DNA from: Vulcanimicrobiota bacterium
GTDB taxonomy: Bacteria; Vulcanimicrobiota; Xenobia; Xenobiales; JADMJV01
Direction of reading: 5' to 3'
NCBI GenBank assembly: GCA_050250895.1
Contig: JBFWNU010000004.1
Location: forward strand, 96,001 to 160,000
DNA: 64,000 nucleotides
The number at the start of each line of letters is the position of its first letter. Positions within the stretch are counted from its first letter, which is position 1. Below are positions 4,953 to 58,167 of the stretch, piece after piece. Made by a program: the position numbers and the translations under genes. The notes beneath the pieces were generated by a model. That model searched no databases and was not told where the DNA came from. It was given only the letters and a program-made list of their open reading frames with translations.

Positions 4953-4984
4953 TTAAGGGTTCCTTAAGAACGGCCTAATAGACT
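4953..4984 (+). promoter_or_regulatory. Direct-repeat (11-bp period) box plus -10 hexamer
   Basis: TTAAG-N6-TTAAG-N10-TAGACT. Same spacing recurs at 55519-55550, 56819-56850 and 58136-58167. Confidence 0.7.
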
Positions 4985-5104
4985 CGCTGCAGGACTGGGA
5001 AGCTGTCGAGAGTTCCACGCATTTTCGCTTCGACAGCGGGCGCAGGGCGTCCCGGTTGAAGAATTGCGTCCATGCGTCTTCAGCCGAAAACGAAAGGCGT
5101 GGAG

Positions 5105-6079
5105 ATGAAAGTCCAACCCCTCACCAACCAGCAAGCCATCGACAGGCTGCAAGCAGAAGAAATGCGTCTGTTGCGCGACAACCATCCGTCCGACGCGGCG
5201 CAAATGGTCGAGAATCGCGAGATTCTAGCCAAAGGGCGAGGAGACGACCTGTGGGACGTGTTTCGCAACGCCCACGAAGCCGAAGCAAAGTGGGACAAGG
5301 TCAAACAGGCCATCACTCCCGAGGACAGCAGCGAAGTCGGATTCTATGGCGCCTTCGCGGGCTTCGTGGCCGCAGGAGCGGTGGGTAGCGCGGTGGGTAA
5401 CTACTTGCACACGGGCAATCTGGGGCAGTCGCTGCTGCTGAGTTTGATCCCGGTGGCCACAGGCCTGCTTGGAGCTTTGATAGCTTTTGTTCCCTACGAA
5501 GACGAGGATATCGACCTTAGTCGTCCCATCGGCGGCGTCATCGCGGCCACCTCCATCGCAGCCATGGCCTCTCATCACTGGCTTCCCCCGGTCGCGGCCG
5601 GGCTGGCCACGATCGGCGCCAGCGTGGCCATTCCTCTGGTGGCCGCCCATAAGTCCGAGCAAAACAGGCGCATTCAGGAGGTCATCGAGACCAACAAGAA
5701 GCTTCTGGAGACCCCCCTGAGTCCCTCCGCCAAACTTGGTTCGGCCATCAGCAAGCGCGATGTGCTAGGCACCCTCTCGAGGCTCGAAGCCAAGGCGGTG
5801 GAGGAATCGAACTACACCGGCGCGGTGACGATCCACGAAGACCTGGAGCGGTTGGGCGACCTCAAGGGCGACACCTTCCACGATATGTTCGTGGCCAGTC
5901 GCGGCCACGAGAAAAGCAAGAACACTCTGATTCGGTATGCCGACAAGATTCTCGAGGACGCCCGTCAGCGCGACGAGATCGACGCGCTGCTCAAAGGCAA
6001 TCCCTCGGCCACCCAATTGCTGGTGGAGGAAGAAGCGATCGAAGTGGGCGACCAGCGCCTGCCGGTCGTGACCCAGTAG
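5105..6079 (+). CDS. Orphan membrane protein, tandem paralog A, with C-terminal IEVGDQRLPV motif
   Basis: ATG at 5105. Central hydrophobic segments. Clear similarity to the next ORF (MKVQ.L..Q.A..RLQAEE.RLL.DN.P.DAA). Confidence 0.8.
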   Translation: MKVQPLTNQQAIDRLQAEEMRLLRDNHPSDAAQMVENREILAKGRGDDLWDVFRNAHEAEAKWDKVKQAITPEDSSEVGFYGAFAGFVAAGAVGSAVGNYLHTGNLGQSLLLSLIPVATGLLGALIAFVPYEDEDIDLSRPIGGVIAATSIAAMASHHWLPPVAAGLATIGASVAIPLVAAHKSEQNRRIQEVIETNKKLLETPLSPSAKLGSAISKRDVLGTLSRLEAKAVEESNYTGAVTIHEDLERLGDLKGDTFHDMFVASRGHEKSKNTLIRYADKILEDARQRDEIDALLKGNPSATQLLVEEEAIEVGDQRLPVVTQ

Positions 6080-6087
6080 GAGGAAGT

Positions 6088-7071
6088 ATGAAAGTCCAAT
6101 CACTCAACCGCCAGGAGGCGGTCCATCGGCTGCAGGCCGAGGAGGTTCGCCTGCTGGGCGACAACCGCCCTAATGATGCCGCCGAAGTCCTCAAAGCTCG
6201 CAAACTCATCAGCGACGCCCCGGGAGACACCCTGTGGGACGCCTATAGTCAGGCCGGCGACAAGGCCGAGAAGTCTCAGCGACTAAGCGATACCCTGGTC
6301 CCGAGATTCGACTATTACGGCGAGGCCAAGCTGGACTTGCGCCCCCCTCTGGCCCTGCTCGGGGTCGGCATGGCCGGCACCGCCCTGGCCAACTATGTGC
6401 GCACTGGTGACCTGGGGACTTCACTACTGGTCGGCTTGATACCGGCCGGAGTGGGGGTCTTGGCCGGACTGGTCAATCTCTTCACGACCGAAGAGGGTGG
6501 ACGGGACACCTCGCGGGTGTCGACCGCCACCATCGCGACCACATCGATTGCGGCCGCGGCCACCGGCAACTGGGTGGCTCCCGTCATTGCGGGTACGGTG
6601 ACTATGGGGGCCCTGGTGGCCGCAACCCGGGTCAGTGGACAAGCCGCCCAGAAGCAAATGGCCATTCAGGCCGCCATCACCAACAACCGCGAGCTCTTCA
6701 AGACCCCGCTCAACCCATCCCAGGTGCTGGGCACCAAGATTAGCAAACAGGAGGTCGTGCAGACCCTCTCGCGGCTCGAGAGTCAGGCCATCACCGAAAA
6801 CCAGTTTGAAGACGCCATGAAAATCCGCAAAGACCTGGCCACAGTGGCCACCCTCGGCGGCCAGAACTTCCACGAGATGTTCGTCGAGTGCCAGGCCCAC
6901 GGGGGTGACCGGGCCAAACTGCTCAACAACTATGCCGAGGCGATTCTTGACGATGCCCGCAAGCGGACCGAGATCGAGGACCTGGTGAAGGGAAATCCCA
7001 AGCCCGGCGAACTGCTGGTGGGAGATGAACTGGTGGACGTGGTGGATCAACAGGTGCCCGTCTATCGCTAG
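6088..7071 (+). CDS. Orphan membrane protein, tandem paralog B
   Basis: AGGAGG RBS. Full-length similarity to 5105-6079. Ends ELLVGDELVDVVDQQVPVYR. Confidence 0.82.
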   Translation: MKVQSLNRQEAVHRLQAEEVRLLGDNRPNDAAEVLKARKLISDAPGDTLWDAYSQAGDKAEKSQRLSDTLVPRFDYYGEAKLDLRPPLALLGVGMAGTALANYVRTGDLGTSLLVGLIPAGVGVLAGLVNLFTTEEGGRDTSRVSTATIATTSIAAAATGNWVAPVIAGTVTMGALVAATRVSGQAAQKQMAIQAAITNNRELFKTPLNPSQVLGTKISKQEVVQTLSRLESQAITENQFEDAMKIRKDLATVATLGGQNFHEMFVECQAHGGDRAKLLNNYAEAILDDARKRTEIEDLVKGNPKPGELLVGDELVDVVDQQVPVYR

Positions 7072-7083
7072 ACGGGAGTCTGC

Positions 7084-56818: not shown

Positions 56819-56850
56819 AGCCTAAGCCAGCGGGCCTAAGGAATGCTGGA
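56819..56850 (-). promoter_or_regulatory. Direct-repeat box + -10, leaderless
   Basis: TCCAG-N6-TTAGG-N10-TAGGCT-N6-ATG. Confidence 0.7.
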
Positions 56851-56882
56851 AATAGCCGAGCTTCGATGGCGACTCCACAGAA

Positions 56883-57299
56883 ATGCGCCGTCGCTTGCTG
56901 GAGTTGATGTTCTTGGTGGTGGGAGTGGCTCTGGGAGCAAGCTTCGCCCAGCCCCAGCCTCCTCCCCCGCCGCCCCCGCCGGCCGTCCAAGGCTTGCCCT
57001 ACGAGGTCTTCAAGCAAGCGATCAGTCCGCACCCCGAGCTGCGCGGAGCCCGCCTCGCCAATCGCATGAGCGAGGCCCAACATCGGGCCTGGATGGCCGG
57101 TGACTTTGTCGTCCCCGACGAGATGGAAGACGGCCACGGAGTCGATGTGATTGGCGACGGCAGTTATCGGATCTGGCTACTGAAAGTGGAAAGCCGCTAC
57201 TGGGTGCTCGACGGGCGCCATCCCTACGAAATTCCTGAAGACCCCCACGCCCGCGGATGGAACTACTATATGTATGCGATTCTGGTGGGCAAGTGCTAG
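56883..57299 (+). CDS. Exported hypothetical protein
   Basis: Signal peptide ending SFA and a poly-Pro linker. Confidence 0.65.
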   Translation: MRRRLLELMFLVVGVALGASFAQPQPPPPPPPPAVQGLPYEVFKQAISPHPELRGARLANRMSEAQHRAWMAGDFVVPDEMEDGHGVDVIGDGSYRIWLLKVESRYWVLDGRHPYEIPEDPHARGWNYYMYAILVGKC

Positions 57300-58129
57300 C
57301 ACTTTTCGTAGTGCCAGCGGTCGCGGGGCTTCTGCTCGTGGGCGTCGAGCTGGTCGAAGGGTAGATGCCCTGGCCACTCGCCCACCTGCTCGACTCCACG
57401 CTCGTTGATCTCGTAGACCAGCGTGTCCTCGACGTACAGACAGTTGTGGGTGCCGCCCTCGATGTGCACTCCGAAACGATGCTCGCAGCCAGGAATCTTC
57501 TCGACCCGACCCACCGAGCGATAGACATCTCTCCAGCCCGGGTTGCGAGTCATCTTGGCGCCAATCTCTTCGTAGCGTCCGGTTTCAGGGTTGTGCTTGA
57601 CGGCGATGAAGAGATCCCGGCACTCGTATTCTCCATCATCCAGCCAGGTCGGTCCGCCCTCATACTGAGTCGGCAGTAGCACGATATCCTGGTCTTTGCC
57701 CATCACCAGCGGGGCGGACAGCAGCCACTTGAAATCAGACTTGACGTCCATGGGAAGATTCTGTTCGACTCCGGCCGAGGTCAATTCGGGGTCGGGATAG
57801 GGGCGATTGAGACGAGGCTCGCCCAGCACACGATGGCGCTCGCGAATCTGATAGGCGCCGCCTTTGGCTCCTACGTCATGCAGTTCTTGCCGGCAGCGAG
57901 CCGTATTGCCCTCGGGAGGCGCGATGATGGCCAGTTGAGTCCAGGCGTCTTCCACCAGCTGGGCCGATTTCTGAGCCACGGTATCGGCCGGCGGCAAGAA
58001 GCGAGTGTAGGTCAGGGCCTCGACGGGTTGGGACGGACTAAAGGTATCGGTAGGTCCCTGTTCAGGGTTGGCGCGGTGGGTGGCGCGGTGCAAATTTAGA
58101 TTGTTGAGGCGTGTTACCGGGCTGACCAT
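57296..58129 (-). CDS. Orphan protein with low-complexity N-terminus
   Basis: 277-aa ORF with host-like codon usage and a shared promoter motif. Confidence 0.7.
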   Translation of the reverse strand: MVSPVTRLNNLNLHRATHRANPEQGPTDTFSPSQPVEALTYTRFLPPADTVAQKSAQLVEDAWTQLAIIAPPEGNTARCRQELHDVGAKGGAYQIRERHRVLGEPRLNRPYPDPELTSAGVEQNLPMDVKSDFKWLLSAPLVMGKDQDIVLLPTQYEGGPTWLDDGEYECRDLFIAVKHNPETGRYEEIGAKMTRNPGWRDVYRSVGRVEKIPGCEHRFGVHIEGGTHNCLYVEDTLVYEINERGVEQVGEWPGHLPFDQLDAHEQKPRDRWHYEKC

Positions 58130-58135
58130 ACTGCC

Positions 58136-58167
58136 AGTCTAGTGGACCGCCCCTAACAGAATCTGAA
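58136..58167 (-). promoter_or_regulatory. Direct-repeat box + -10, leaderless
   Basis: TTCAG-N6-TTAGG-N10-TAGACT-N6-ATG. Confidence 0.7.

Follow-up and report, generated by a model that had tools for sequence, protein, structure and literature searches.

A direct-repeat promoter class of about 350 copies, with a shared N-terminal protein module, in a genome of the Vulcanimicrobiota

Introduction

Four sites in a stretch of 64,000 nucleotides (nt) from a Vulcanimicrobiota bacterium (contig JBFWNU010000004.1, positions 96,001 to 160,000; GenBank assembly GCA_050250895.1), called the window below, raised the question of whether one promoter element, a direct repeat at a fixed distance from a -10 hexamer, controls a set of scattered genes, and what the products of these genes have in common. 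The initial annotation had placed the four sites ahead of orphan transcription units, and had proposed a large, lineage-specific regulon under one response regulator of the PhoB/OmpR family. All four sites belong to a single promoter class, which is present about 350 times in the genome, and most proteins encoded behind these promoters begin with a common module. Literature searches on promoters, leaderless genes, effectors and flagella of Eremiobacterota, and on TTTCAG direct repeats, found no paper on the element, and to our knowledge there is no promoter map of the phylum. One cultivated representative of this little-studied phylum was reported in 2022 (PMC9758169).

The promoter class

The four strings of the initial annotation were present in the window letter for letter, its coordinates being those of the first base of the distal repeat, and an ATG lay exactly 6 nt past the -10 hexamer at all three minus-strand sites (Table 1). 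TTNRG-N10-TAGRCT occurred four times in the window (mean 0.14, largest 2 in 100 dinucleotide-preserving shuffles), and TAGRCT-N6-ATG occurred three times (0.29 expected by shuffling). Scanning of the window with the position weight matrix described below returned no additional site of at least 12 bits, and the four sites are therefore complete for the window.

Both strands of the genome (9.5 Mb, 17 contigs, 99.6% complete) were scanned with the spacing between elements varied. TTNRG-Nx-TAGRCT occurred 99 times at x = 10 against 11 to 33 times at each other x from 4 to 19, and TAGRCT-Nx-ATG occurred 112 times at x = 6 against 8 to 50 times at other x from 0 to 14. TTCAG-Nx-TTCAG occurred 74 times at x = 6 (a period of 11 bp) against 5 to 26 times at other spacings, and TTTCAG-Nx-TANNNT occurred 143 times at x = 10 and 100 times at x = 21, against 7 to 19 times at other x. 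These spacing controls were decisive for a promoter class that extends through the genome.

A position weight matrix, built in three iterations with the reversed, non-complemented genome as control, converged on tTTCAG-nnTTnT-TTCAG-G-N9-TAgnCT, i.e., tTTCAG-N5-TTTCAG-N10-TAgnCT, with a single fixed spacing. Matches of at least 16 bits numbered 350 in the genome and 10 in the control, and matches of at least 20 bits numbered 314 and 2, respectively, which places the motif far above background. Relative to the inferred start of transcription, information was confined to -39 to -34, -31 to -23, -12 to -7 and +1 to +3. No third repeat and no conserved flanks were found around the 33-bp core in the alignment of matrix sites, so that the motif is not a dispersed repeat element. 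Sites were present on all large contigs (21 to 58 per Mb) with mild clustering only. A classical promoter was found alongside it in the same genome (TTGACA-N17-TANNNT, 87 occurrences against 2 to 16 at other spacings), and the repeat promoter is therefore a separate class, probably of the activator type.

Transcription start and leaderless mRNAs

The start codon was assigned at each of the 350 sites as the first ATG or GTG that opened an open reading frame (ORF) of at least 50 codons. It was located 6 nt past the -10 at 125 sites and 7 nt past it at 30 (155 together), and 5, 8 and 9 nt past it at 7, 11 and 13 sites, respectively; 3 of the 350 sites had no qualifying ORF inside 200 nt. These positions suggest that transcription begins 7 nt past the -10, at the A of the start codon, and imply the same start, about 7 nt past TAGRCT, as the initial annotation had given. 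The mRNAs concerned, roughly half, are therefore predicted to be leaderless. A Shine-Dalgarno-like site was present in 59% of the 133 members whose start codon lay at least 10 nt downstream. From the excess of TANNNT-N6/N7-RTG ahead of ORFs of at least 150 codons, about 500 leaderless genes were estimated in the genome, about 131 of them using the repeat promoter. Leaderless genes with a classical -35 encoded ordinary products, e.g., TetR- and LysR-like regulators, as judged by eye from their N-termini.

Site 1 in the window had no ATG at the short distance, its first long ORF beginning 87 nt (ATG 5072) or 120 nt (ATG 5105) past the -10. Transcription from this site is predicted to begin at A 4991, with a predicted leader of about 80 to 115 nt, and ATG 5105 is the likelier of the two starts. 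The four ORFs that follow site 1 probably form one transcription unit, judging from strand and spacing.

Distribution and conservation

The exact pattern TTCAG-N6-TTCAG-N10-TANNNT was counted in 151 genomes of the phylum, with the backwards pattern as control (0 to 1 match per genome). The source genome had 52 matches. The pattern occurred in 15 of 15 genomes of its own family (f1; 3 to 46 per genome) and in 5 of 5 genomes of family f3 of the same order (25 to 56 per genome), followed by 3 of 3 genomes of family f4 of the same class (4 to 9 per genome) and the single genome of family f5 (2 matches). Only 2 of 19 genomes of family f2, of the same order and with genomes of 1.9 to 4.7 Mb, contained it (0 to 2 per genome), and most other families had 0 to 2 matches per genome. 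The motif was thus frequent in f1 and f3, the two families of the order that are rich in it, less so in f4 and f5 of the same class, and almost missing from f2, the sister family with small genomes. Its presence in family f13 of another class (1 to 7 matches per genome) was rejected, as the 7 exact matches of genome G016 were without fitting ORFs and look like chance in AT-rich DNA.

Homologues of the 770-aa protein encoded behind site 2 were found only in its own genus, one genome of genus g3 (partial), all 5 f3 genomes and one f4 genome, and in none of the 19 f2 genomes. The motif (14.7 to 32.4 bits) lay directly upstream of 7 of the 8 near-full-length homologues (28 to 51% identity), each of the 7 with its start codon 6 to 10 nt past the -10; one paralogue from the same genus was without the motif. 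Retention of the motif ahead of such diverged homologues is the strongest evidence that the element is functional. Spacing, matrix and relatives' genomes together supported the large, lineage-restricted regulon with one fixed promoter architecture that the initial annotation had proposed.

Proteins encoded by the regulon

Pfam families (E ≤ 0.001) were assigned to 100 downstream proteins drawn at random, 60 from leaderless members and 40 from the others. No family was found for 35 of the 60 and 20 of the 40, and 45 of the 100 proteins had Pfam domains, so that the description of the regulon as one of orphan proteins stood for 55 of 100 and not for the remainder. Enrichment in orphans was not established, the control share of 19 of 45 without a family having been obtained from other window ORFs, some of them doubtful, with mixed Pfam and NCBIfam libraries and ORF calling different from that of the regulon sample. 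For the four window units themselves, the Pfam scan assigned no family to any gene, and the protein atlas gave no usable match for the window orphans, the atlas models having a predicted local distance difference test score (pLDDT) of their own of 0.45 to 0.49. A frameshift fusing the 94-aa gene behind site 3 to the next ORF was rejected, as the 94-aa product was unlike the neighboring 277-aa protein.

Members with lipid-active domains included a GDSL lipase, a GDPD, five PlsC-type acyltransferases, a PLD, a caleosin and a lipid desaturase, and further hydrolases were esterases and an alpha/beta hydrolase. Proteolytic or deaminating members were peptidases C11, C26, S8 and M42, a peptidyl-arginine deiminase and a glutamine deamidase. 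Further members were an alpha-amylase, a mannosylglycerate-hydrolase-like and a glycerol-3-phosphate-oxidase-like protein, RNase II, a P450 and an ACP; WD40, PQQ and PD40 propellers, VWA domains and two PilZ proteins were also present.

Promoter mechanism and candidate activators

The repeats occupied -39 to -34 and -28 to -23 relative to the inferred start (TTCAG at -38 to -34 and -27 to -23), and the -10 hexamer occupied -12 to -7. The -35 position lay between the repeats and was not TTGACA-like, and the distance of either repeat from the -10 did not suit a sigma factor. The box spanned -39 to -18, with its center near -29, and the gap to the -10 was 10 bp after TTCAG, or 9 bp counting the following G. 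A head-to-tail pair with an 11-bp period that ends about 10 bp before the -10 is a hallmark of OmpR/PhoB-type domains, and pho-box promoters have hexamer-N5-hexamer direct repeats in place of the -35, the pho box of Escherichia coli stopping 10 bp short of the -10. The element has the layout of OmpR-type winged-helix activators: its two equal half-sites are a helical turn apart on the same face of the DNA and stop 10 bp ahead of the -10. The architecture named in the initial annotation, that of PhoB/OmpR-family activated promoters, agreed with this geometry, which is also that of SARPs. The direct repeats bound by SARPs have a spacing of 11 or 22 bp, and 8 bp separate the 3' repeat from the -10; in Streptomyces, the afs box of afsS, 22 bp long and centered at -29.5, has an upstream repeat (-40 to -30) that overlaps a poor -35 element, TTCAGC, at -38 to -33; sigma region 4 docks on the SARP dimer rather than on the DNA ("sigma adaptation"); and PhoP binds the same afs box in Streptomyces (all as excerpted from PMC10936776).

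By analogy, the element probably works like an afs or pho box with a winged-helix activator of the OmpR/PhoB-SARP kind (probability about 0.6). A dimer of such an activator would bind the two repeats head to tail and would give sigma region 4 a docking surface that stands in for the -35 element, with a housekeeping-type sigma reading the TAgnCT -10. A response regulator, a SARP-type protein or a protein of another kind may act as the activator. Among 29 matches to Trans_reg_C in the genome, 19 were ordinary response regulators (about 225 to 325 aa) and about 10 were large proteins with weak matches. One gene (C1:3333277-3335109) encoded a SARP-type response regulator with verified Response_reg, TPR, Trans_reg_C and BTAD domains; the gene of a GAF histidine kinase precedes it, and right behind it comes a regulon promoter with a VWA-domain gene under its control. 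Its closest relatives (38 to 50% identity) were in f1 and f3, with none in genus g4 of f2, and a related type of 883 to 900 aa was also present in the motif-free genera g8 and g9. The phyletic profile of this protein was discarded as a clue to the activator, being noisy owing to paralogues and to the shared receiver domain. Nothing tied the window OmpR-type regulators at 25072-25734 and 28042-28719 to the motif.

The same regulon under an activator that is not a winged-helix protein, i.e., a NarL/LuxR-type response regulator or another direct-repeat binder, is unlikely, although one regulator of this type is well placed: a receiver-GerE protein of 225 aa (C3:756756-757430) has its start 44 nt past a leaderless gene of the regulon, the two are probably co-transcribed, as would be consistent with autoregulation, and the genome has at least 150 receiver domains. 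NarL-type proteins, however, usually use inverted heptads, and the head-to-tail geometry with an 11-bp period is of the OmpR/PhoB type. It is also of the SARP type (PMC10936776, excerpt).

Direct reading of the repeats by an alternative sigma factor, with no activator, is rather improbable. The spacing was as rigid as in a sigma-dependent promoter, and the genome had 26 matches to sigma-70 region 2, among them a group-2-like sigma of 331 aa close to a locus of the regulon and an ECF sigma that follows one of the regulon genes. Two equal repeats were conserved, yet a sigma factor reads one -35; the distances of the repeats to the -10 (10 and 21 bp) matched no known sigma spacer; the -10 was of the housekeeping TANNNT type and not ECF-like; and the genuine sigma-28-type promoter of flgM looked quite different. 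A sigma-28 (FliA) promoter, with a TAAA-like -35 and a GCCGATAA-like -10, was rejected, as the regulon consensus has no box of the kind found upstream of flgM. The genuine flgM (C1:558618-558902, minus strand, 95 aa) had a ribosome-binding site and a GTCGATAA box upstream, and judged against the general sigma-28 consensus the lineage also seems to keep a typical promoter of this type.

The shared N-terminal module

Absent from the initial annotation and new here is a module at the N-terminus of most regulon proteins, which consisted of M-x-[I/V]-x-[P/G/S], a stretch rich in P, A, R and S, and then P-x-D-x-V-E-L. Of the 173 leaderless members, 70 had I and 41 had V at residue 3 (111 together, 64%), against 5% with I or V among 44 leaderless genes with a classical promoter and 15% among 3266 long ORFs, and residue 5 was mostly P, G, A or S. 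The second block, P-x-D-x-[V/F]-[E/D]-[L] at residues 19 to 36, was obtained by expectation-maximization and was visible in an alignment of 52 members; D-x-V-E-L blocks of at least 10 bits were found in 32% of members and in 7% of controls. In an all-against-all BLAST, 126 of the 173 leaderless members had no partner at E < 1e-5, and the members are thus mostly unrelated proteins. A Sec-like hydrophobic stretch within residues 1 to 35 was found in 5 of 173 members against 20% of controls, and the first 12 residues were free of D and E in 72% of members against 45% of controls. A hydrophobic segment further in, often rich in Gly and Ala (median position 66), was present in 57 of the 173.

Matches to the module profile were tied to the promoter: among 85,733 six-frame segments of the genome, 13 of 48 non-training matches had a promoter of at least 12 bits inside 200 nt upstream, against a base rate of about 0.4%. 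In f3, 5 of 8 sampled sites preceded M-x-[I/V] proteins and 4 of 8 were leaderless; the f4 picture was weaker. The glycerol-3-phosphate-oxidase-like enzyme had promoter, module and hydrophobic segment both in this genome and in f3 (67% identity, 24-bit site), and its f2 homologue (41% identity) began at the enzyme domain with neither site nor module. In this respect the module is like a portable tag.

Explaining the common N-terminus as a by-product of the leaderless translation start or of the initially transcribed DNA has little to recommend it. The pattern did begin right at +1 and was strongest in leaderless members. Leaderless genes with a classical promoter, however, were without it, the second block lay 20 to 35 codons downstream, and residue 3 was I or V in 42% of the 133 members with a leader, the pattern being kept behind leaders of 10 to 190 nt with a ribosome-binding site. 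Leadered members keep the module, including that of window site 1 (M-K-V-Q-P, from 5105), and an origin in the promoter DNA or in translation without a leader is thus very unlikely. That the motif is merely the strongest form of a housekeeping promoter of the lineage, or a dispersed repeat element, is least probable of all and nearly negligible: it is abundant and scattered genome-wide, yet a classical -35/-10 pair occurs in the same genome, the genes downstream differ in kind from those behind classical promoters, and conservation ends at the 33-bp core.

Possible export or targeting of the regulon proteins

The chance that the module is a targeting or export signal seems about even; the suggestion follows from its being common to unrelated, co-regulated proteins and replacing Sec signals. 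The enzyme types whose Sec signals it replaces are usually secreted elsewhere. The promoter would switch on the whole set of tagged proteins together, as in the effector regulons of pathogens. More tentatively, promoter and module may together constitute a new class-wide export or targeting system, with one activator of the SARP/OmpR type and a route that does not depend on Sec signals. Its cargo would be several hundred unrelated proteins, among them lipases, phospholipases, acyltransferases, proteases, an RNase II, an oxidase of an H2O2-making type and many proteins without a known family, each with an N-terminal tag not described before. Candidates for the delivery route would then be the second of the flagellar-type gates and the additional SecA that is under the same control; in some Gram-positive bacteria, accessory SecA systems export proteins that have no signal. 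If true, this lineage with large genomes would possess an effector-like arsenal. For one of its sister families, a predatory way of life has been suggested (PMC9259500, from an excerpt of that article).

The genome had exactly two SecA genes, the second of them (C12:63314 onward, ORF length about 1194 aa) lying behind a repeat promoter and having an N-terminal extension of 170 residues that is probably disordered. Two full flagellar-type FlhA/FlhB gates were present (Table 1), in clusters that included FliE, FliF and FliG/FliM-type genes. An injectisome was rejected, the only two full-length FHIPEP (FlhA) genes being both in these flagellar-type clusters, and in the marker-gene search neither the type VI sheath protein (VipB/TssC) nor VirB4 was found in the genome. 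Full FlhA genes numbered two or more in motif-rich families and one in f2. Extra FlhA and extra SecA were rejected as markers of the regulon, as their distributions did not follow the motif.

Eight stand-alone proteins with only the cytoplasmic C-terminal domain of FlhA/SctV (ORFs of 379 to 1024 aa) were also encoded, none of the eight with a strong repeat-promoter site. FHIPEP matches numbered up to 19 in large-genome relatives and 2 to 3 in the small-genome family f2.

Several observations weigh against a winged-helix-activated regulon of exported proteins. On the side of the activator, none of the 29 Trans_reg_C genes had a site of at least 16 bits directly upstream, which gave no clue from autoregulation (an autoregulated OmpR-type regulator was rejected on this ground); the distance from repeat to -10 was 9 to 10 bp against the 8 bp quoted for SARPs; and a NarL-type regulator and an ECF sigma, both encoded right behind genes of the regulon, could equally be involved. 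On the side of the module, the profile was weak, with 37 of its 52 training sequences reaching E ≤ 10 in the six-frame genome, and of 18 non-training matches that began at a start codon 6 had the promoter. Some members look like ordinary cytoplasmic enzymes (a pyruvate kinase barrel, a peptide deformylase, PrmA). On the side of export, the marker search found no dedicated secretion machine tied to the regulon, and neither flagellar cluster carried the motif. Close orthologues of the extra FlhA (cluster C1:571318-594099) were present in f3 and f4 and not in f2 or in g3, a genus of the source genome's own family, and the extra SecA type also occurred in the motif-free genera g8 and g9, with long SecA paralogues in most large genomes of the class.

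Other loci

A potassium-sensing module of an ordinary kind, unconnected with the repeat promoter, is also encoded in the window (Table 1). The ATPase and the overlapping helicase ORF at 11130-14710 may be an anti-phage defense pair; they are followed by transposases. The gene group at 31416-36842 resembles tailored lasso-peptide clusters. A protein with a CHAT domain and a cyclase are encoded elsewhere in the window.

Table 1. Promoters, genes and other loci; positions are those of the window unless preceded by a contig label (C1, C6, C7, C8).
Feature	Position	Strand	Elements or product	Score (bits)
Promoter 1	4953..4984	+	TTAAG 4953-4957, TTAAG 4964-4968, -10 TAGACT 4979-4984	27.5
Promoter 2	55519..55550	-	GTCAG 55550-55546, TTCAG 55539-55535, -10 TAGGCT 55524-55519; ATG 55512-55510	29.4
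Promoter 3	56819..56850	-	TCCAG 56850-56846, TTAGG 56839-56835, -10 TAGGCT 56824-56819; ATG 56812-56810	24.2
Promoter 4	58136..58167	-	TTCAG 58167-58163, TTAGG 58156-58152, -10 TAGACT 58141-58136; ATG 58129-58127	29.0
Transcription unit 1	5072..9433	+	First ORF from ATG 5072 or ATG 5105 (M-K-V-Q-P...)	
Unit 1, further same-strand ORFs	6088-7071, 7084-8775, 8867-9433	+	No Pfam family	
Gene 2, predicted leaderless	53200..55512	-	770 aa, no Pfam family	
Gene 3, predicted leaderless	56528..56812	-	94 aa (M-V-I-S-G...), no Pfam family	
Gene 4, predicted leaderless	57296..58129	-	277 aa (M-V-S-P-V...), no Pfam family, no usable protein-atlas match	
ATPase	11130-13016		PtuA/retron-effector-like N-terminus; overlaps helicase ORF	
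Helicase ORF	12818-14710		UvrD/PcrA-like	
Transposases	14834-18537		IS256 and IS66 families	
CHAT protein	19834-22149	-	772 aa, C-terminal CHAT (caspase-like) domain	
Potassium-sensing module	23141-28716		Kup 23141-25072, OmpR-type 25072-25734, KdpD-like kinase 25727-28042, KdpE-like 28042-28716	
Lasso-peptide-like group	31416-36842		PqqD-like lasso-peptide chaperone domain 31416-32270, GT4 and GT2 glycosyltransferases, HprK-related kinase A 35997-36842	
Cyclase	45086-46855	+	CHASE2-adenylate/guanylate cyclase	
Flagellar cluster, extra FlhA	C1:571318-594099		FlhA, FlhB, FliR, FliE, FliF, flagellin, FliD, FliA-like sigma, ECF sigma, MotA, FliG, FliH	
Flagellar cluster	C1:1458932-1476156		FlhA, FlhB, FliR, FliE, FliF, FliQ/P/O/N/M, hook-type protein, FliK, FliJ, FliI	
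Stand-alone FlhA C-terminal domains 1 to 4	C6:529401-530381, C1:2013982-2014740, C1:2475431-2476438, C7:121919-122905			
Stand-alone FlhA C-terminal domains 5 to 8	C1:1126976-1127566, C7:117253-118194, C1:2008860-2009774, C8:31716-32150			

Implications

The 33-bp element, which predicts about 350 co-regulated units, together with the second, classical promoter type, gives a first clear regulatory code in the phylum. The SARP/PhoP layout of sigma adaptation would be extended from actinomycete antibiotic clusters to a genome-wide regulon in another phylum. Promoter and module also provide a simple, testable means of listing proteins for which export or special targeting is probable, over half of them without a known family, and if the tag is an export signal, the question opens of how these bacteria deal with other cells.

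Comparison with known systems

In type III effectors of plant pathogens, I, L, V or P stands at the third or fourth residue, and acidic residues are few. The regulon proteins resemble type III effectors in combining a common promoter element with a biased, non-hydrophobic N-terminus. As in the PmrA and hrp/PIP-box regulons, one cis element marks many unrelated, scattered genes. PmrA of Legionella, a winged-helix response regulator, controls about 40 effector genes that are scattered and mostly lineage-specific (PMC6989116, excerpt). Unlike in effector regulons, no injectisome, VipB/TssC or VirB4 was found in the genome, the set is several times larger, and export is predicted only; the phylum, the share of leaderless members and the recognizable N-terminal module also set it apart from regulons such as that of PmrA.

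FlgM shows a visible resemblance to the module: 11 of 16 FlgM proteins of the phylum begin with M-x-[I/V] and have V-E-[L/V/I]-S about 35 to 45 residues in. The hidden Markov model of the module, however, left FlgM unscored (16 FlgM; best 7.5 bits, E 37 in a genome-wide search space), and flgM is preceded by a sigma-28-like promoter of its own as well as by a ribosome-binding site. A FlgM-like export signal was rejected on the failed profile test and is kept as a lead only.

With pho-box promoters the element shares repeats of 11-bp period that take the place of the -35 and stop 10 bp short of the -10. Unlike the Pho regulon, the regulon has no phosphate-scavenging content as such, though many members act on phospholipids. 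A classical Pho regulon was rejected, as neither PhoU (PF01895) nor a PstS-type protein (PF12849) was found in the 99.6% complete genome; each of the two models matched in 13 of 14 control genomes. A genome without a detectable PhoU or PstS-type phosphate-binding protein is unusual for a free-living bacterium.

Relative to afs-box promoters, the element differs in the number of promoters (about 350 against a handful in biosynthetic clusters), in the phylum, in the gap to the -10 (9 to 10 against 8 bp) and in the half of mRNAs predicted to be leaderless, and the SARP-like proteins of this genome, unlike those of known SARP systems, carry N-terminal receiver domains. As in SARP systems, proteins that combine a winged helix with BTAD are encoded. 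The two direct repeats, spaced by a helical turn, make up a box of 22 bp whose period is that of the afs box and whose place is like it (center near -29 against -29.5), and, as in the afsS promoter, the upstream repeat covers the -35 with the same pentamer, TTCAG, at -38 to -34. A poor -35 together with a housekeeping-type -10 is likewise common to both (excerpt of PMC10936776).

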